A stretch of 42,765 bases of DNA from Promethearchaeota archaeon (GTDB lineage: Archaea; Asgardarchaeota; Lokiarchaeia; Sigyniarchaeales; SOKP01): assembly GCA_019057865.1 (NCBI GenBank), contig JAHLWP010000035.1, positions 1 to 42,765 on the forward strand. The letters are read 5' to 3'. The first letter of the stretch is position 1. Each line of letters opens with the position of its first letter. Shown one piece after another: positions 15,814 to 35,500 of this stretch. The translations under genes and the position numbers were made by a program. A model generated the notes under the pieces. It was not told the origin of the DNA. It ran no database searches and worked only from the letters and a program-made list of their open reading frames with translations.

Positions 15814-15944
15814 TGCAGGGAGTGGGATTTGAACCCACGTACTCCTGTGAGACCGGATTTCTCATCAGAAATTGCATTAATCAACGGAATTGTATTTAAC
15901 AGATCTTGAGTCCGGCACCGTTGACCAGGCTTGGTTATCCCTGC
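15814..15944 (-). tRNA. tRNA-Leu(CAA) with a canonical 37/38 intron (15859-15904, 46 nt)
   Basis: GCAGGGA/TCCCTGC acceptor, CCGGA-CTCAAG[intron]A-TCCGG, long variable arm, BHB central helix CTCA/TGAG. Confidence 0.95.
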
Positions 15945-19485: not shown

Positions 19486-19653
19486 AACTTATTTATATTA
19501 AGTAAAAAATATTTAAAATATTTTTTAGATATTAATTCATACTGCTATTTAATATTAGTTAATTAACCTATAAAAAAATCTTAAATAAGAATATTACATA
19601 AAAATTTAAATTAAATTATTATTATTAAATATAAAATAAAATTTGGTAATATT

Positions 19654-20181
19654 ATGTCTCCAAAAGAAATTACAAAAGTAGACATGACTAACGAAGTTTT
19701 TAAAGAACCAATTGAAGTGATTAAACAATTATCTGATAATCTAGATTTAAAGTATACTAAAGTAATACAAACCTATGTTATGGAAGATAGGCGATTAAAT
19801 CTATCATTAGAACATCAAGGCTCCAGTTATTTTAAAGGAAAAGTAGTTTGGATTGGTAATAAGAAAGATGATACTGAAGGATCTATATTTTGTGTTGATA
19901 CAAAAGATGAGCTCAAGCAAATTAATCCTAATGCGGAAAATACTGAAAAAGTAATTTTAGATATAAAAAAAGAATTAATTAGAGTTAAAACTGTGTCGAA
20001 AACAAAGTGTTCTGTATGCGGCAAAAATATAGAAATCTTTGACGAACTAACCGGTTGTCCTATATGTGAAGCAAAAGCGCATAAAGATCATTTAATAGAT
20101 TGGGTTAGAATGAAACATTCTTGCCCTGTTTGTAAGAAATCTTTAAATGTATCAAGTACAGGTGTGATTTTTATCGATTAA
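19654..20181 (+). CDS. Protein with a C-terminal RING-like zinc finger
   Basis: CSVC-x12-CPIC-x4-H-x2-H-x3-W-x6-CPVC. Confidence 0.75.
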   Translation: MSPKEITKVDMTNEVFKEPIEVIKQLSDNLDLKYTKVIQTYVMEDRRLNLSLEHQGSSYFKGKVVWIGNKKDDTEGSIFCVDTKDELKQINPNAENTEKVILDIKKELIRVKTVSKTKCSVCGKNIEIFDELTGCPICEAKAHKDHLIDWVRMKHSCPVCKKSLNVSSTGVIFID

Positions 20182-20929
20182 ATTTTTTTTTTTGCTTAAA
20201 ACTTTTCAATTTATCAATATTTAATGATCCATCATATAAAGCAGTAGCAATTAATACACCTGAGAAATTTCGTTCTTTAAAACTTATTATATCATTGAAA
20301 TTTTTAATACCTCCTCCTACCAATATGTTTCCCTTAAAAGAACGCAAAATTTCTTGATATGATAAAGGAATACCTCCCAATTTCTGCCCAACTCGATATA
20401 AATCTAAAAGTATAATTTCCCTAATCCCAATTTCTTCTATTTTTTTAATCACTTTCAAAGGTATTTGGTTCTTTATTTCTTTAATACTTGAGATGATTTT
20501 TCCCTTACACATATCTATACTTACAATTAATTTATCATTCCCTACAATATTTATAGCGTCAGAAATTATTTGAAAATCTCCTATTGTTTCTAGGCCCAAA
20601 ATTAATTTATTAAAATCAAATTTAGAAAAAATTAAAAGATCTTTTCTATTTCTAATTCCTGGATCTATCATTATATTTACATTTAAAGTCTCTAATATTT
20701 TAATATATAGGTCTAAATTCGGTTTTTTTTTAATAATCGCATCTAAATCTGCAATATAAAACTCATAAAAGCAAGTTTGTTGTTTTAAATCTTTTATAAT
20801 TTCAATTGGATTTGAAGATTTAAGAATTTTGGATTTTAAAGGTTTATATTTATTTCTTTCACCTTTTACCGCATGTACCGCTTCAGAATTTAATATATCT
20901 ATTACGGGTATAATTTTAAAGCCGACCAT
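20171..20929 (-). CDS. HisA/HisF-related TIM-barrel protein (type associated with C1-cofactor biosynthesis)
   Basis: IIPVIDI...AVHAVKGER..Y.P, YIADLDAI, LGLET, LLDL.RVG, VGGGI, ATALYDG. Confidence 0.85.
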   Translation of the reverse strand: MVGFKIIPVIDILNSEAVHAVKGERNKYKPLKSKILKSSNPIEIIKDLKQQTCFYEFYIADLDAIIKKKPNLDLYIKILETLNVNIMIDPGIRNRKDLLIFSKFDFNKLILGLETIGDFQIISDAINIVGNDKLIVSIDMCKGKIISSIKEIKNQIPLKVIKKIEEIGIREIILLDLYRVGQKLGGIPLSYQEILRSFKGNILVGGGIKNFNDIISFKERNFSGVLIATALYDGSLNIDKLKSFKQKKKFNR

Positions 20930-21108
20930 AGAATTTAACTAAAAATAATTTCTATAATTAAAACAAAAGTTCAAAAAATTACAGATATGGAATACTCTTT
21001 TTTTTTTTAAAAAAATTGATATTAATTAATTATTAAATAATTTTATTTTTAAAGTATAATTTCTAAAATACCATTGATTAATTAAACTGCAAATTTGTTG
21101 TGTTTTAT

Positions 21109-22818
21109 ATGAAAACTGAGGCATATATTAGGAAAATAATTGAAAATACCGGTTTAGAAAGAAAGGAAATTGAACAATTAGTTGAAGAAAAGAAGACAGA
21201 GTTAAAAGGTTTAATTTCTGATGAAGGTGCTTTATTTATTATTGCTAAAGAGTTAGGAGTTGATATAAAGGAAGAAACTAAAAGACTCCTAGAAGATATT
21301 GATATTAAGGTTGCTGATATTAGCGTAAATATGAAAAATATAACTCTGATAGGCAGGGTTAAAGAAATCAATAGTGTCTTCACTTTTAATAAAAGTGATG
21401 GTAATATTGGAAAAGTGGGATCCTTTTTATTACATGATGATACCGGAGATATACGAATTGTCTTATGGGACGAACACATAAATATTTTTAAAGAAAATAA
21501 TTTTGTTAAAAATGAATTGGTTAAGATTTTAAATGGATATGCCAAAAAAGGTAAATATGAAGAAGTTGAAATTCATATAGGTAATTTAGGAAAGATAATC
21601 TTATCACCCGAAGATGTTGATTATAAAAATTATCCTAAAATAAAAGAGGAATTTATCTCAATAAGTAATATTGATTTAACAATGAAATCAGTTGCTATTG
21701 AAGGAAAAGTAATACAAAAATTTCCAATAAAAGAATTTGTAAAAAAAAATGGCGAAAGTGGAAAGGTAGGGTCTCTTATTTTGATGGATTCTACAGGATC
21801 TATAAGAGCTACTTTTTGGAATGAAGATACTCAGAAATTTAAAGAATTTGAATCTGATGATTATATCGCAATTACTAATTTGAATCCAAGATTAAATAAT
21901 CTCGATTCTACAACAATAGACTTATTTGCTAGTTCTAGCTCAAGCATCACTAAAAAAGATCAACCTATACAACTAGAAGTTGAATTAGTTGAAAATATTA
22001 ACCAACTTCAAAGTAGACAAAATATTGTCTCATTTAAAGGAATTATTACCTCTATTGATAATTTGAAAAAAGTTAGACTAAAATCAGGGGATGAAGTTTA
22101 TTTATTGAATTTTATTGTGAGTGATAATACAGATTTCATTAGAATTACAGCATGGCGTGAAAGAGCAGAAAGCCTATCGAAAAAACTATCAAATAATACA
22201 GGAGTAATGATTAAAAATACACTCTTAAGAGTTAATAGTTATTCTGGGAGAAAAGAAGCTTCAATAATAGCGGATACAAATTTAGAAATAATTAATCTTA
22301 GTTTTAGCAACCTCAAGAAATTTGAAGGTATATCAGAGACTAAAAATATTTCTCATTCGAATAATATTACAAAAATTAGTGAAATAAACTCACTAGGTGT
22401 CTTTGAAATAAAAGGTTTTATTGCTAAAGAAATAAACAGAATAAATATCTACAATGCCTGTTCTAAATGTTTTAGAAAGATAGAAAATTGTAATTGTGAA
22501 GAAAAGGGTGAAATAAAACCTAGAATGATTTTAAACCTTTTTATTGACGATGAGAGTGGTATAATACGTTCTTCATTTATAGGTGACATTGCTGAGAAAT
22601 TACTTGGAAAAGAAACTGAAATTATAATGAAAGTAATGGATACTTCTGATTATGATAAAGTTTTAGAGAAACTTTCAAGCCAGTTAGTAGGAAGAGATAT
22701 TTGCATCAAAGGAAAGGTTAAATTCAATGATTATTCAAATTCGTATGAATTAAATGCTTTTGATTTTCAAGAAGTAGATGTCAATTATGATTTAGAGCAA
22801 ATAATAAACGAAATTTAA
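21109..22818 (+). CDS. Replication protein A large subunit (RPA70-like)
   Basis: Four OB folds (DDTG.IRIVLW, DSTG.IRATFW, DNTD.IRITAW, DDESG) and a Y.AC..C...C.C zinc finger. Confidence 0.9.
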   Translation: MKTEAYIRKIIENTGLERKEIEQLVEEKKTELKGLISDEGALFIIAKELGVDIKEETKRLLEDIDIKVADISVNMKNITLIGRVKEINSVFTFNKSDGNIGKVGSFLLHDDTGDIRIVLWDEHINIFKENNFVKNELVKILNGYAKKGKYEEVEIHIGNLGKIILSPEDVDYKNYPKIKEEFISISNIDLTMKSVAIEGKVIQKFPIKEFVKKNGESGKVGSLILMDSTGSIRATFWNEDTQKFKEFESDDYIAITNLNPRLNNLDSTTIDLFASSSSSITKKDQPIQLEVELVENINQLQSRQNIVSFKGIITSIDNLKKVRLKSGDEVYLLNFIVSDNTDFIRITAWRERAESLSKKLSNNTGVMIKNTLLRVNSYSGRKEASIIADTNLEIINLSFSNLKKFEGISETKNISHSNNITKISEINSLGVFEIKGFIAKEINRINIYNACSKCFRKIENCNCEEKGEIKPRMILNLFIDDESGIIRSSFIGDIAEKLLGKETEIIMKVMDTSDYDKVLEKLSSQLVGRDICIKGKVKFNDYSNSYELNAFDFQEVDVNYDLEQIINEI

Positions 22819-22937
22819 TTCTAATTTGATTGTATAATACACTTTTTTTAACTAGTTTTTATTGCTTTTATCAGTATTTTTATAAATAGATTAATTTGTT
22901 AGATTATAATCAGTATAGAAATTAAGATTTATTTTAT

Positions 22938-23873
22938 ATGAAGGAAGTTGATATTATAGGATTAGGGGAAGCCGTTATAGATTGGGTGGCTGAAATACCA
23001 CATTTTCCGAGACCTGATGAAAAAGTTGATGCATTAACCGAGAAATATTTTCCAGGTGGAGTGACTGCCAATTTTTTAGTAGCAATAGCTAGACTAGGAG
23101 GTAGGTGTGGATTTATTGGTGCAGTTGGAGATGATTTATATGGAGATTTCTTAATTAAAGACTTTAAAAATGAAAATGTAGATGTATCATTTATAAGCAA
23201 GAAACTAGGCAAAAAAACTCCAATCAATTTTATATTTATTGCTAAAGGGGAAAAAACAATTATCCAATCAACTCATATGTATAATACAAAATTAAAAATT
23301 TCTGATTTAGATGAATCGTATATAGCTGAAGCAAAACTTTTGCATACAACAATAATTCATCCTGAACTTACTAAAAAAGCAATTGAAATTGCGAAAAAAC
23401 ATGATGTAAAGGTTAGTATAGATTTGGAACCTCAGATTGCTCAGAGAGGGTGGAAAGTTTTAAAAAAGATAATTCTAGAGGCAGATATCCTAATACCTAA
23501 CAAAAAAGGTGCTAATTTAATTACAAAATGTAAAACACCTAAAAAAGCTGCTGAAAGATTAATTAAGAAAGGAGTACCAATTGTAGTTATAACTTTAGGA
23601 AGTGAAGGGGCCCTAGTTGCAACAAAAGAATTTCAAAAAAAAATTCCATGTTTTAAAGTTGATAATATAATAGACACTACAGGTGCTGGTGATACTTTTA
23701 ATGGAGCCTTATCAGTAGCTTATTGGATTAAAAAAATGAATTTGGAAAAATCAATCATTTATGCAAATGCTGCTGCAGCATTAAAAATTCAGAAATTGGG
23801 AGCTAGAACAGGGATGCCTAGCGAAAGTGAATTAATAGCGTTTTTAAAAAGTAAAAATATAGTTAATTTATAA
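22938..23873 (+). CDS. PfkB family carbohydrate kinase (ribokinase-like)
   Basis: PGG..AN...ARLG, GAVGDD, TLGSEGA, DTTGAGDTF. Confidence 0.92.
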   Translation: MKEVDIIGLGEAVIDWVAEIPHFPRPDEKVDALTEKYFPGGVTANFLVAIARLGGRCGFIGAVGDDLYGDFLIKDFKNENVDVSFISKKLGKKTPINFIFIAKGEKTIIQSTHMYNTKLKISDLDESYIAEAKLLHTTIIHPELTKKAIEIAKKHDVKVSIDLEPQIAQRGWKVLKKIILEADILIPNKKGANLITKCKTPKKAAERLIKKGVPIVVITLGSEGALVATKEFQKKIPCFKVDNIIDTTGAGDTFNGALSVAYWIKKMNLEKSIIYANAAAALKIQKLGARTGMPSESELIAFLKSKNIVNL

Positions 23874-23949
23874 TTAATATTAATTTATAATTATTTTTTT
23901 ATTCTAAACCAACTTAAAAACTAAGTAGTAAAAATAAAAGATTAATATT

Positions 23950-24390
23950 TTATTGGTCTATTAGGCAAATATTTGCATATTCATGAGGTTTGTTTATTAA
24001 ATTTCGATAATTTTTAAGAATCTTCTCAGATGATAAATCTGTGGTTTGTAAATTAAATGGCCAAACTCCTACTACAATATCACCCAATTTTTTCACATTT
24101 CCAATTAAATAACCTACTTTTGCTCCATCTGATTTAAGTGTATATAATACAATAAAATAATAATTATATGAATATCTAGATTTTTTAGTACCAATTACAA
24201 CAACCTCTTCAATATTTTGAAAATATAAAATGTTGTGGCTTAATTCACTCAAGTTTTTTAGCTCCAAGATAAATTGAGTTGTAACCTTTATTGGTTTATC
24301 TGAAGTTATATCTTTAAAGCTCAATGTTAATTTCTTATTTTCAGACTCTTGAACTCCTTTAAAGATTACTTTATAAATATTGAAATCCAT
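23950..24390 (-). CDS. Hypothetical protein
   Basis: 146-aa ORF with no overlap and no recognised motif. Confidence 0.65.
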   Translation of the reverse strand: MDFNIYKVIFKGVQESENKKLTLSFKDITSDKPIKVTTQFILELKNLSELSHNILYFQNIEEVVVIGTKKSRYSYNYYFIVLYTLKSDGAKVGYLIGNVKKLGDIVVGVWPFNLQTTDLSSEKILKNYRNLINKPHEYANICLIDQ

Positions 24391-24471
24391 AGAAATTAGG
24401 TAAAGATTTATTTTTTTAATTATATAACTTTTTATATCTAGATTTCTGAAAGAGATGTTAATTATTATTAT

Positions 24472-24804
24472 TTACCTTTTTTTTCTTTTTTCTTGAATAA
24501 GGATATTTTCTTCAGGAAATCCTAAATCAATTAAAAACTTTTTCATCTTAAAACGATGATCTCCTTGAAGTTCAACCTCGTTATTTCTTACAGTTCCGCC
24601 TGAAGCACACTTTTTCTTTGCTTTTGTTAAGATATCTTTAAGATTAACATCAAAATTCCCTACAAATGTTATTACTGTAACCACTCGCCCCCATTTCCTT
24701 GTGTCATTAGATATTATTATTTGTTGCTCATCAGCACTTAAGCCTTCACAAATACATAGTTCTTTTGGAAAACTACATATTGGACAAATGTCGTCGTCTT
24801 TAAT
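24472..24804 (-). CDS. sui1: Translation initiation factor aIF-1 (SUI1), probable ATT start codon
   Basis: The track ORF (24472-24684) extends 40 codons in frame: (ATT)KDDDICPICSFPKELCICEGLSADEQQIIISNDTRKWGRVVT...CASGGT....VELQGDHR. An in-frame TGA at 24816-24814 closes the frame, and there is no ATG/GTG/TTG before the Cys motif. Confidence 0.92.
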   Translation of the reverse strand: MKDDDICPICSFPKELCICEGLSADEQQIIISNDTRKWGRVVTVITFVGNFDVNLKDILTKAKKKCASGGTVRNNEVELQGDHRFKMKKFLIDLGFPEENILIQEKRKKR

Positions 24805-25082
24805 ACTCTCTTTTCACAACCTTTAATATTAAAATCTTTTTAAAATACAATACTTGAAAAATAATAGAACAATATCTTTTAAAAATCTTTCACTCTAGAG
24901 TGACACTTTTATAATGTAAAAAAGAGGGAACTTAAATTTGATAAATTAAACATTAAAAATTTATCTTTTAAATTTATAATATTAGATTTAATTTATCAAG
25001 TAAAAAAATATATAAAGATTAAATTTTATTTAATATAAAAAACTGTACTCTTTATTTTAGTTTAATAATGTGAATAATTAAT

Positions 25083-25616
25083 ATGCAAAGTTCATGGATA
25101 TTTAAAGTAATTGTGGCAGGGGCTGGTGGAGTTGGAAAAACTGCTATGATAACTCGTTATTGTACAGGGAGATTCGAAGAAGGGTATAAAATGACTATAG
25201 GTGCAGGTTTTTATACAAAATCTGAAATTCTTGATACAGGAGAAGCTGTTAAAATGCAACTCTGGGATTTTGCAGGAGAAAAACGTTTTCGCGAACTTCT
25301 ACCCGACTATTGTAAAGGGGCTAGTGGAGCATTCATATGTTTTGATATAAGCGATTATGATACATTTAGAGAAATACCTGAATGGCTTAAGATCATCCGC
25401 CAAAAAGCTGGATTTATACCAATAATTCTTATGGGTATGAAATGGGATCTACCCAACCATGAAGTTGTTTACGAAATTGCAAATGATTATGCTGAAAAAG
25501 CTAAATGTAATCAGTGCGTATTTTGTTCTTCGAAAGGAAATATCAATGTAACAGATTCTTTTCAGGCCATGGCAAAATGGTTAATCTATTATGCCACTCA
25601 AACAAATATGATATAA
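25083..25616 (+). CDS. Rab-like small GTPase
   Basis: FKVIVAGAGGVGKT, YKMTIG, LWDFAGEKRF, MKWD, CSSK; no C-terminal prenylation motif. Confidence 0.9.
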   Translation: MQSSWIFKVIVAGAGGVGKTAMITRYCTGRFEEGYKMTIGAGFYTKSEILDTGEAVKMQLWDFAGEKRFRELLPDYCKGASGAFICFDISDYDTFREIPEWLKIIRQKAGFIPIILMGMKWDLPNHEVVYEIANDYAEKAKCNQCVFCSSKGNINVTDSFQAMAKWLIYYATQTNMI

Positions 25617-25707
25617 TATTAAAATTCTGATTTTAATCTGGTTTTATTAAACAGTAAAAGCTAAATATAATATTTAATAAAATTATTATAAAATAATCAT
25701 AAAAAGC

Positions 25708-25902
25708 GCCTCTGTAGCTCAGTTAGGTAGAGCACCGCCTAAATTATGTGCGCCTAAAGCACCCGGCTAAGTAAGCTTGATTTCACAGCTTCTCCGGAAG
25801 TTAACCGGGCGGTCGCATGTTCGATATTCTGTCTGATGATATCCAGACAGAACGGGTTCCATACAATGTTCGAGCTCCAAGCAGTGGGAAAAGCCAGGGG
25901 CG
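25708..25902 (+). tRNA. tRNA-Asn(GTT) with four introns (22/23, 33/34, 59/60, 63/64)
   Basis: Exons 25708-25730, 25758-25768, 25800-25825, 25859-25862 and 25893-25902 join into a 74-nt cloverleaf: GCCTCTG TA GCTC AGTTAGGTA GAGC A CCCGG CTGTTAA CCGGG CGGTC GCATG TTCGATC CATGC CAGGGGC G. G73 fits Asn. Confidence 0.88.
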
Positions 25903-25973
25903 CTTTACTTCTCTTTTAAAATAATAATAAAAAAGAGTGTGAAATTTTATATTTATTATTTAATCAATTATAA

Positions 25974-26114
25974 TGCTCCCGCCGGGATTCGAACCCGGGT
26001 CGCAGGGGTTTTCCCTATAGACGAAGGAAATAGGTCTATATGAAGGCCCCGTATGCCACGCCCTTTCCTTCTCAATATTGAAGGGATTGATTGGCCAGAC
26101 TACACTACGGGAGC
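25974..26114 (-). tRNA. tRNA-Glu(TTC) with two introns (D-arm ~24/25: ~26054-26087; anticodon loop ~36/37-37/38: ~26009-26040)
   Basis: GCTCCCG/CGGGAGC acceptor, GTGT D-stem, CGGGG/CCCTG anticodon stem, CGAC variable loop, CCGGG-TTCGAAT-CCCGG T-arm, TTC at 26044-26042. Exact junctions are ambiguous by a few nt. Confidence 0.8.
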
Positions 26115-26358
26115 AAATTTTTATCTAATTAATTTTTTTTATCCTTATGATAGAGTAATCAAATAATATTATTCAAAGAATTTGATAAATCACGACTTAT
26201 GTATAATTTTGTAATTATTTTTTAATTTTAAATTTTTTCATAATCTATTTTGGAAAATTAGACTTAGTAATTAATTAACTCTTAAAATAAGTATCTTTTG
26301 TACAAATTCATTGAAATTTCTAAATTTGATATTTTAATTTATGTGGTATTGAATCTAA

Positions 26359-26443
26359 TGCGGGAAGGGAGATTTGAACTCCCGAACTCCTACGAGAATG
26401 GATTCTAAGTCCACCACCTTTGACCAGACTTGGCGATTCCCGC
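26359..26443 (-). tRNA. tRNA-Leu(TAG), intronless
   Basis: GCGGGAA/TTCCCGC, GTGGA-CTTAGAA-TCCAT, long variable arm, GGGAG-TTCAAAT-CTCCC. Confidence 0.96.
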
Positions 26444-26613
26444 TTTTTGAGATTAAATTGTAGATTTATTATTTAATTAAAATGGTTAGAAATAAATAAA
26501 TTTTATATTTGTGAACTTAGTTCTAAATACGATTGAATTAAAAGAAAAAAATTTATTATTATATATAATATAAAAATTTTATATTAATAATAAAAAAAAA
26601 GCCTGAGTTTTTT

Positions 26614-27612
26614 ATGAGTGTAAGGGAATCTTTAATTAAACATTTAACGTCTATTTTACGGGCATCTGAAGGAACAATCTTAGTAGTTCTATGTGATCAA
26701 AATGGTCTATCTATAGCTAAAATTGGCAGGAAAAGTGATATAGATTTAAATCCAAATCAAATAACAAGTTTAGCATCAGCAGCGTTTTCTGCTAGTCAAG
26801 AAAATTGGGAAGATTTGAACATTAAAGATCAAGTTATTTCATTTTCATATTTTGATAAGATTTGTTTGATAACAATAAGAATTAATGAAACTCTTCTTAC
26901 AATAGTTCATGATTATCATAAAGAATGGCCATTAGATGCTGATAATCTAGCTAGTTCTATGTATTATTTAAAACAAAAGTTAGGTGATTTTTTTGGGGGT
27001 GGCAGAGAATCTGAAAAAGAAATTGAAGAGTTTTGCGATAAAGTTCGAAGTGCTACGTATCTTTTCGGGATGGGATCAGAAGTTCCTTTTACATCATACC
27101 TCCCTGAAAAAATTGATAAATCAGATATCTTAAATTCTATAAGCACTGTTTTGGATTCTGTTCAAAATCCTATATTTATCAGGTATAGTTTAGTTAGCCC
27201 TTCTGGTTTGACTTTAGATGCTCGAGAAGTTAGTGGGAAAGATTTACCTGTTTCCGTTGAAGCATTTTCTGCAAATGCTAACGTAGCATTTCAAAAAATG
27301 AAAGAAGAATCAGAAGGAAGCTCAATTGGTGATCTCTTAAGTTATATAGCAATCGCAGGTCAAGATACTGAAAATTTTTATGGTCTTCTCGCAAGTCCTT
27401 CAGGAAAAATAAATTTTTCAAAAATGGAAGATACTTCAAATGTTCAGGAAATATCTTTTATTGGATTGTTTACATTAACATATGGAGGTATTCCCGTTAT
27501 TAGTGAAGCCAGAAATATTATTTTTTCAATATTAGAAATTCTTGGGAGTGAAAAAACGACACAGAACTTCATTGAGTCTATAAATGTTCTTACTAGTTAT
27601 AAATATGATTAA
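26614..27612 (+). CDS. Tandem roadblock/LC7 (MglB-like) domain protein
   Basis: Two repeats of the roadblock pattern: VVLCDQNGLSIA...ITSLASAAF and SLVSPSGLTL...FSANANVAF. Confidence 0.8.
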   Translation: MSVRESLIKHLTSILRASEGTILVVLCDQNGLSIAKIGRKSDIDLNPNQITSLASAAFSASQENWEDLNIKDQVISFSYFDKICLITIRINETLLTIVHDYHKEWPLDADNLASSMYYLKQKLGDFFGGGRESEKEIEEFCDKVRSATYLFGMGSEVPFTSYLPEKIDKSDILNSISTVLDSVQNPIFIRYSLVSPSGLTLDAREVSGKDLPVSVEAFSANANVAFQKMKEESEGSSIGDLLSYIAIAGQDTENFYGLLASPSGKINFSKMEDTSNVQEISFIGLFTLTYGGIPVISEARNIIFSILEILGSEKTTQNFIESINVLTSYKYD

Positions 27613-33358: not shown

Positions 33359-33525
33359 ATTATTAATGAATATTTAAAGAAAAATTTAAAAATTTCCTAT
33401 TTTTAATAATGAATATTTTGGGATTAATCCAATTTAAATAAAATCAGCAAATATTCTATTATTAATTTTGATTGAATTATAGTAATACTTTTACAGTCGT
33501 TTAATAGTAAATTTTTAAAAATAAA

Positions 33526-33628
33526 TGGACCTGACGGGAATTGAACCCGTGACCTCTTGAATGCAAGTCTTGTAAATCAAGCAAAATGCTTGTTTTTGTC
33601 AAGCGATCTTCCACTGATCTACAGGCCC
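33526..33628 (-). tRNA. tRNA-Ala(TGC) with a non-canonical 32/33 intron (33567-33597, 31 nt)
   Basis: GGGCCTG/CAGGTCC acceptor with G3-U70, CTTGA-C[intron]TTGCAT-TCAAG, BHB central helix CTTG/CAAG. Confidence 0.93.
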
Positions 33629-33881
33629 ATTTGATTGGGTTTTTTGAACAATTAATAAAAATAACAATAATTAATATTTTTTTCTATCCAATTATTAAAA
33701 TCTGTGCCTATTTAACGCCTTTCATTTTAACAATTAGATTAAAAAGATTTTTTAGAGGTAAACTTTTCATTGTAAATTTTTATTCTCATCTATATTAACC
33801 CCATTTTAGATATAAGTCATTTTAATGCTTTTTATTAAATATTTATCTATAGAGTTCTAATTAAAAAAGAGAAAGAAAGTA

Positions 33882-35500
<1,619 letters not shown>

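Follow-up and report, generated by a model that had tools for sequence, protein, structure and literature searches.

Mutually exclusive splicing motifs of two neighbouring introns in a four-intron tRNA-Asn gene of a Loki-type Asgard archaeon

Within a 42,765-nucleotide contig (the window) we identified a tRNA-Asn(GUU) gene that is split into five exons by four BHB introns, and in which the splicing motifs of introns 3 and 4 (BHB3 and BHB4) overlap and cannot fold together. The best overall explanation, to which we give an even chance as a whole, is that this is a functional, single-copy gene of a Promethearchaeota (Loki-type Asgard) archaeon, spliced by EndA and RtcB, whose T arm is processed in two rounds with intron 4 leaving first. 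The fold exclusion follows from the positions of the two motifs and may also protect the 4-nt exon between the two introns; the order of removal we infer from comparison with related genomes.

Results

A single interrupted tRNA-Asn gene

The host genome (4.26 Mb, 29% GC) has an estimated completeness of 99.7%, and 28 (Rfam) to 30 (ARAGORN) tRNAs were detected in it. Genome-wide searches with the two tools returned no tRNA for Asn, Asp, Glu, Gln, Met, Pro or Trp, and the unspliced tRNA-Asn gene is itself undetected by ARAGORN or Rfam, even at E ≤ 1. The following features define the locus:

25708–25902, + strand: tRNA-Asn(GUU) gene with five exons and four BHB introns, 195 nt; G73 discriminator, CCA not encoded
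25708–25730, 25758–25768, 25800–25825, 25859–25862 and 25893–25902, + strand: tRNA-Asn exons, 74 nt when joined
25686–25696, + strand: A/T-rich TTATAAAATAA, TATA-box-like, about 10–20 bases upstream of the gene, read from sequence

A four-intron tRNA-Asn gene had been proposed in a first-pass annotation, and this reading holds: removal of the introns leaves a perfect 74-nt cloverleaf with a GUU anticodon, which ARAGORN accepts as tRNA-Asn(gtt). For comparison, the Rfam tRNA model RF00005 gives 64.9 bits for an orthologue without introns. The interrupted locus is the only tRNA-Asn gene found in the genome. Upstream, TTATAAAATAA may serve as a TATA-box-like element, judging from the archaeal promoter consensus. 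Because so few tRNAs are detected despite 99.7% completeness, many further multi-intron tRNA genes must be hidden in the genome, and the case shows why the tRNA sets of Loki-type Asgard genomes appear incomplete.

Geometry of the four introns

BHB motifs were scored by a fixed rule, in which the central 4-bp helix consists of the four bases upstream of each 3-nt bulge and the cut falls after the second bulge base, and the rule was applied to all boundary registers that yield the same spliced product. All four introns fit a register with two 3-nt bulges, and the predicted cuts yield the exact mature sequence. The introns, and the short exon between the last two, are:

25731–25757, + strand: intron 1, 27 nt, position 22/23 in the D stem; relaxed HBh'-type BHB
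25769–25799, + strand: intron 2, 31 nt, position 33/34
25826–25858, + strand: intron 3, 33 nt, position 59/60 in the T loop; full hBHBh' motif
25859–25862, + strand: micro-exon CCAT, 4 nt, tRNA positions 60–63, between introns 3 and 4
25863–25892, + strand: intron 4, 30 nt, position 63/64 in the T stem; central-helix strand GGAA at 25887–25890

Intron 1 has the central helix AGGT/GCCT (three Watson–Crick pairs and one GU), a 4-bp inner helix and an outer helix of one G–U pair; its register is the best of seven equivalents, all with an unchanged spliced product. The central helix of intron 2, CCGG/CCGG, has all four pairs and replaces the anticodon stem, with an inner helix present and no outer helix. 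Intron 3 combines a central helix TTCG/CGGG (two GC and two GU pairs) and bulges AT-A and TT-C (the hyphen marking the cut) with an inner helix formed by a 9-bp hairpin (25827–25835/25844–25852) and an outer helix of three T-stem pairs (G53–C61, T52–A62 and A51–T63), which extends to 5 bp once intron 4 is gone. In intron 4, T25857, T25858, C25859 and C25860 form four Watson–Crick pairs with the strand G25887, G25888, A25889 and A25890; the bulges are AT-A and AA-G, the inner helix is interrupted and the outer helix has 2 bp (G25856–C25894 and G25855–C25895).

Inner helices are present in all four introns, and the outer helix is good for intron 3 only. Weak or absent outer helices had been noted for introns 1, 2 and 4, and the scoring agrees (one G–U pair, none and 2 bp, respectively); intron 1 fits a BHB best at 25731–25757 (22/23), a correction that leaves the product unchanged. 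The CCAT micro-exon is the sole parse that restores the T stem GCATG/CATGC, and either flanking intron occurs alone in relatives. A shifted register for intron 4 was rejected as it breaks the T stem. A blastn-short search of the genome returned no further copies of the four introns, and hence no sign of recent intron copying.

At the top of the 9-bp hairpin, intron 3 carries CUGAUGA (25833–25839), similar to a C box that shares bases with a D box (CUGA); intron 3 of other species has CUCUGA at the same place. A C/D-box guide RNA was considered and rejected, the intron being too short at 33 nt and having no separate D box. The site could instead be a K-loop-like site for protein binding.

Introns 3 and 4 interlock

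The overlap between the two T-arm motifs centres on the end of intron 3:

25855–25858, + strand: GGTT, the four 3'-terminal bases of intron 3; incompatible roles in BHB3 and BHB4

In BHB3, G25855 and G25856 pair with T55 and T54, the two T bases lie in the 3' bulge (T25857, T25858 and C25859), and C25860–T25862 form the outer helix with G53–A51. In BHB4, the same GG forms the outer helix with C25894/C25895 and the TT enters the central helix with A25889/A25890. BHB3 and BHB4 therefore share bases 25855–25862, in incompatible roles, and cannot fold together. Both the mutual exclusion and the use of the last TT of intron 3 in the helix TTCC/GGAA had been noticed in the first-pass annotation, and BHB scoring bears them out. 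Because the eight bases are shared, the T arm has to be cut and joined twice in succession and must refold between the two rounds, which supports the refolding that had been suggested.

Two considerations limit what can be read from this genome. The exclusion is a matter of geometry, since overlap is unavoidable for any pair of BHB introns spaced 4 nt apart. When intron 3 is removed first, the helix of intron 4 becomes ATCC/GGAA with an A–A mismatch, as had been foreseen, and keeps three of four pairs, so that the fourth central pair of intron 4 hangs on a single base. The TT complementarity is weak evidence in this genome alone, because that single base decides and because terminal TT is also found elsewhere; it is the sister genomes that give the complementarity between introns 3 and 4 its meaning. 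The pair also differs from nested introns, in which the second BHB has to await removal of the first intron before it can form: here, BHB4 is at its best before removal of intron 3.

Intron content across the genus

We compared the gene across its GTDB genus (54 species genomes), in which a tRNA-Asn gene was found in 48 genomes including this one (47 of the 53 others). This yielded 45 distinct tRNA-Asn sequences (loci L003–L153), with three rows of the intron table corrected by eye. The exons are invariant across the genus and the introns diverge. The 45 genes carry 0 to 5 introns at seven sites (the D loop, 22/23, 33/34, ~37/38, 59/60, 63/64 and a nested site); such a range within one genus implies that Loki-type Asgard archaea gain and lose introns very rapidly. 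Introns are absent from L014 and L016, intron 3 occurs alone in about 20 genes, and the rest have other combinations; overall, 34 of the 45 distinct orthologues have an intron at the intron 3 site (59/60) and about 15 have intron 2.

Intron 4 shares 20–29 of its 30 bases (ungapped) with intron 4 of six other genes. Its inner helix shows compensating changes, with T–G, C–G and T–A at positions 7–19 and an A·G mismatch at positions 4–22 replaced by T–A. It is present alone in L008 and L011, and L140 also has it without intron 3; in these three genes, each of which appears to be the only Asn gene of its genome, the central helix has three of four pairs (ATCC versus GGGA, GGGG or GGAG) and there is no outer helix.

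The genomes G012, G055 and G056 have this four-intron gene too, and their intron 3 is identical. Around the gene, DNA identity to this genome is 98% for G012, ~92% for G055 and G056 and 82–84% for G063, whose gene (L141) lacks introns 3 and 4. The four genomes that share the gene represent one lineage and count as one evolutionary event. They differ at one position that bears directly on the interlock:

25825, + strand: T59, which decides between three (T) and two (G) of four intron 4 central pairs once intron 3 is gone

Within the subclade, this genome alone has T at position 59; G012, G055, G056 and G063 all have G there. Because G59 is common to these four across the ranking by identity, T59 is taken as the derived state in this genome, on the basis of local DNA identity and one protein. 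In the three G59 genomes that have intron 3, BHB4 has all four central pairs and a GG/CC outer helix as long as that intron is present; after its removal the helix becomes AGCC/GGAA, with two of four pairs. An alternative register of intron 3 at 58/59, which would restore T59 in the G59 genomes, was rejected, its central helix having one of four pairs.

The nearest homologue of intron 3 in a gene that lacks intron 4 is that of L150, with 23 of 34 identical bases. The seven bases that precede its end (CAGAACG) match, and the last four are AAAA versus GGTT in this clade, so that the difference falls exactly on the four bases that pair in BHB4. The AA-to-GG change at the same time weakens the helix of BHB3 itself, turning A–U into G–U pairs. 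From this comparison, the GGTT ending of intron 3 looks adapted to the motif of intron 4. Terminal TT is also seen on intron 3 in L018, L020 and L134, that is, in 3 of ~30 distinct relatives without intron 4. In G022 (L006), introns 3 and 4 are both present, intron 3 ends in AA, and the helix of intron 4 goes from two of four pairs with intron 3 present to three of four after its removal.

Further observations concern other sites in the genus. A 60-nt insert at 63/64 in L118, L143, L144, L147, L148 and L006 (genomes G042, G051, G068, G045, G044 and G022, in that order) consists of two introns: bases 29 and 30 of intron 4, in its 3' bulge, are separated by a 30-nt inner intron. In these genes the intron 4 BHB (three of four central pairs) exists only after the inner intron is removed, so by the scoring rule the insert is a classical nested pair with a predicted obligatory order; counting this inner intron, the gene of G022 has five introns. 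The blocks CCGC...GTGTGC...AAAG are common to the D-loop intron and intron 1, which may represent a single intron that has slid. G057 has two different tRNA-Asn genes, L150 (G057:C35:101-264) and L151 (G057:C31); L151 is syntenic on C31, and L150 lies on a 2.7-kb contig and resembles the subclade of this gene. That contig probably comes from a second population binned into the G057 metagenome-assembled genome (8% contamination).

Splicing enzymes

A broad-specificity splicing endonuclease had been predicted for this lineage from the weak outer helices, along with a check for specificity-broadening loop insertions. At sequence level the prediction agrees with the gene content, as the genome encodes two EndA paralogues and the alpha subunit carries a loop with a lysine. 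EndA alpha (G000:C71:81560-82162, 200 aa) keeps Tyr, His and Lys of the catalytic triad, and its best match is the catalytic subunit of the Aeropyrum pernix heterotetramer (3P1Z_B, E = 3e-35). Its segment GINKPRLEYF aligns with DVEKPRGADF of the A. pernix loop (CSL), which places K58 opposite K44, the residue of the Crenarchaea-specific loop described in PMC6379350. The KPR motif is present in 68 of 80 related EndA loci, the remaining 12 lying outside the search pattern. EndA beta (G000:C69:38262-38885, 207 aa) has Ser in place of the catalytic His, keeps Tyr and Lys of the triad and is closest by sequence to the homotetrameric enzyme of M. jannaschii. The pair is predicted to form an (alpha-beta)2 enzyme with an L1/CSL loop lysine. 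RtcB is also encoded in the genome.

Order of removal in the T arm

Under the preferred explanation, the (alpha-beta)2 EndA with its L1/CSL loop would most likely remove the introns and RtcB would rejoin the exons. Intron 4 would first be cut from the precursor with intron 3 still in place, the 5-bp T stem would then form, and intron 3 would be excised last. The route inherited by the clade would rest on an intron 4 motif completed by the GGTT of intron 3, and the fold exclusion may prevent four cuts made at the same time from setting free the 4-nt exon CCAT.

The first-pass annotation had proposed that intron 4 is preferentially removed first. The G59 sisters speak for this, since their intron 4 helix drops to two of four pairs once intron 3 is gone; against it, T59 leaves three of four pairs in this genome and BHB3 is the more stable motif. 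By the BHB rules, the order would be required in G012, G055 and G056 and only favoured here, because T59 keeps the route through intron 3 first open. We therefore see removal of intron 4 first as evenly balanced in this genome and as more likely for its three sisters.

The energies run against that order. Nearest-neighbour calculation gives a local dG of −12.0 kcal/mol for BHB3 and −2.2 kcal/mol for BHB4, and BHB3 reaches −18.0 kcal/mol once intron 4 is gone; BHB3 is, in addition, complete before intron 4 has been transcribed. For the whole precursor, the folds constrained to BHB3 and BHB4 differ by 1.9 kcal/mol (−64.6 versus −62.7 kcal/mol). These constrained and local energies penalise 3-nt bulges and ignore enzyme binding. 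Unconstrained folding of the precursor (minimum free energy and partition function, at 37 and 15 °C) predicted neither BHB, each with a pair probability below 10%, and so cannot rank the routes. A further point against removal of intron 4 first is that the intermediate left by removal of intron 3 first, with three of four pairs here, is no worse than the natural precursors of L008, L011 and L140.

Read jointly, the observations allow a more far-reaching account, which we put forward tentatively and as falling short of an even chance: the 3' end of intron 3 would have been recruited as a working part of the intron 4 motif, making the two introns a co-evolving unit with an obligatory downstream-first order that runs against the thermodynamic and transcriptional order, and with an exclusion that safeguards the 4-nt exon.

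A possible though doubtful alternative is that there is no fixed order, with the precursor flipping between folds, a relaxed-specificity EndA cutting either, both intermediates competent and the TT/AA match incidental. BHB3 and BHB4 both score as canonical in the full precursor and their constrained folds lie close in energy, as given above. Each intermediate resembles a natural precursor of a sister gene, whether with intron 3 alone (about 20 genes) or with intron 4 alone (L008, L011 and L140), the terminal TT of L018, L020 and L134 occurs without intron 4, and in C. merolae a pair of introns in one pre-tRNA is removed in either order (PMC3728597). What counts against this account is the intermediate of G012, G055 and G056, which at two of four pairs falls below the 'relaxed' class of an Asgard census (10.64898/2026.10.13.758758), and the waste that a random order would cause among precursors of the sole Asn tRNA gene.

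We regard it as unlikely that intron 3 leaves first, as the more stable and earlier-finished motif, and that an EndA with an L1 loop subsequently cuts intron 4 out through a relaxed BHB that has two or three central pairs. Besides the difference in local energy, this order would accord with the free-energy rule seen experimentally in C. merolae (PMC3728597), with a calculated BHB4 stability that changes by only 0.2 kcal/mol upon loss of intron 3, and with the improvement of the intron 4 helix in G022 (L006). However, it leaves unexplained both the GGTT conserved in four genomes, with its perfect 4 + 2 pairing to intron 4 and the downstream exon, and the weakening of the BHB3 helix to G–U pairs, and in three genomes it requires EndA to cut a motif with two of four pairs.

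Lastly, it is highly improbable that a pseudogene in decay or an assembly error, with junk insertions for introns, accounts for the locus: standard tRNA finders do miss it, but every one of the four inserts has boundaries that form a BHB, the spliced product is a flawless cloverleaf, the same structure with conserved exons and diverging introns recurs in four independently assembled genomes, and no other tRNA-Asn was found in the 99.7%-complete genome.

A metagenome scan for the junction expected when intron 4 is removed and intron 3 kept returned two matches, both in a GC-rich bacterial asparagine-synthase-like gene, and these were set aside as chance.

Neighbouring loci in the window

On the opposite strand, 70 bp from the tRNA-Asn gene, is another interrupted tRNA gene (25974–26114, − strand, 141 nt), which scores 37.2 bits with the Rfam tRNA model. 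ARAGORN reports it as tRNA-Arg(TCT) with a 58-nt 'intron', in which two or more introns are probably concealed. A tRNA-Leu(CAA) gene (15814–15944, − strand) has a 34-nt intron. A tRNA-Ala(TGC) gene with a 31-nt intron (33525–33629, − strand) is found just downstream of the 16S rRNA gene (33929–35420, − strand), and we take it to be the usual spacer tRNA of archaeal rRNA operons.

Over the region compared with G012 (19600–27410; L155, L023 and L002), DNA identity is 98% across 24193–27410 and only 88% across 19600–24361, which includes an RPA-like gene with 70% protein identity to its G012 counterpart. Either the locus is a mosaic with respect to G012 or the RPA-like gene is evolving unusually fast.

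Discussion

Ordered or nested BHB splicing is already known. What is new here is a BHB motif that is completed, rather than blocked, by an unspliced neighbouring intron, together with natural contrasts within one genus.

The endonuclease has clear precedents. An (alpha-beta)2 EndA with an L1 loop has been published for Asgard archaea (PMC5829648). As in the A. pernix enzyme (PDB 3P1Z/3AJV; PMC6379350; PMC5829648), there are two paralogues, a loop lysine (K58) in a KPR motif and a beta subunit without the catalytic His. Unlike in A. pernix, the beta subunit retains Tyr and Lys and is nearest to the M. jannaschii homotetramer, and the enzyme described here is known from its sequence.

Multi-intron tRNAs have also been described in Asgard archaea (PMC11291895; preprint 10.64898/2026.10.13.758758, with up to five introns per gene). 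They resemble the genes described here in that positions are non-canonical, gains are repeated, a gene may hold up to five inserts, and standard finders miss them. Those studies centre on Atabeyarchaeia, Freyarchaeia and Jordiarchaeia, and a text search of the preprint returned no mention of Lokiarchaeia, Promethearchaeia, splicing order or shared motifs.

In the red alga C. merolae, splicing starts with the BHB of higher stability (Soma 2013, PMC3728597). Its pre-tRNAs likewise contain several BHB introns (up to three), including one in the T loop, and their intermediates show a preferred order (PMC3728597). There, the order follows BHB free energy and each motif folds independently (PMC3728597); here, in contrast, the motifs are mutually exclusive, and comparative evidence points to removal of the less stable one first.

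The closest parallel is with the nested multi-intron pre-tRNAs of Crenarchaeota/Thermoproteales (Sugahara 2007 and Tocchini-Valentini 2009, as cited in PMC3978253 and PMC3728597, and restated in PMC8450103 for tRNAscan-SE 2.0). In the accounts that these sources give, those genes likewise have BHB introns close together with motifs that do not coexist, and in both systems this means sequential cutting and joining by EndA and a ligase. The published maximum for Crenarchaeota/Thermoproteales is three introns per gene (PMC8450103), compared with four here. In the cases as cited there, the BHB of the last intron forms only after its neighbour has been removed, whereas in this gene, and more strictly in its three sisters, BHB4 is complete only while intron 3 is present and lends it its last four bases. 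As far as these accounts go, ordered splicing of archaeal tRNAs is described only as the inner intron leaving so that the outer motif can form, and the direction proposed here is the opposite. If true, intron 4 would be the first case of a BHB intron that needs an unspliced neighbour in order to be removed. The genus supplies natural controls for this comparison (T59 versus G59, GGTT versus AAAA, each intron alone, and the opposite dependency in G022), which bear on how an endonuclease of relaxed specificity picks among competing motifs and on how micro-exons survive.
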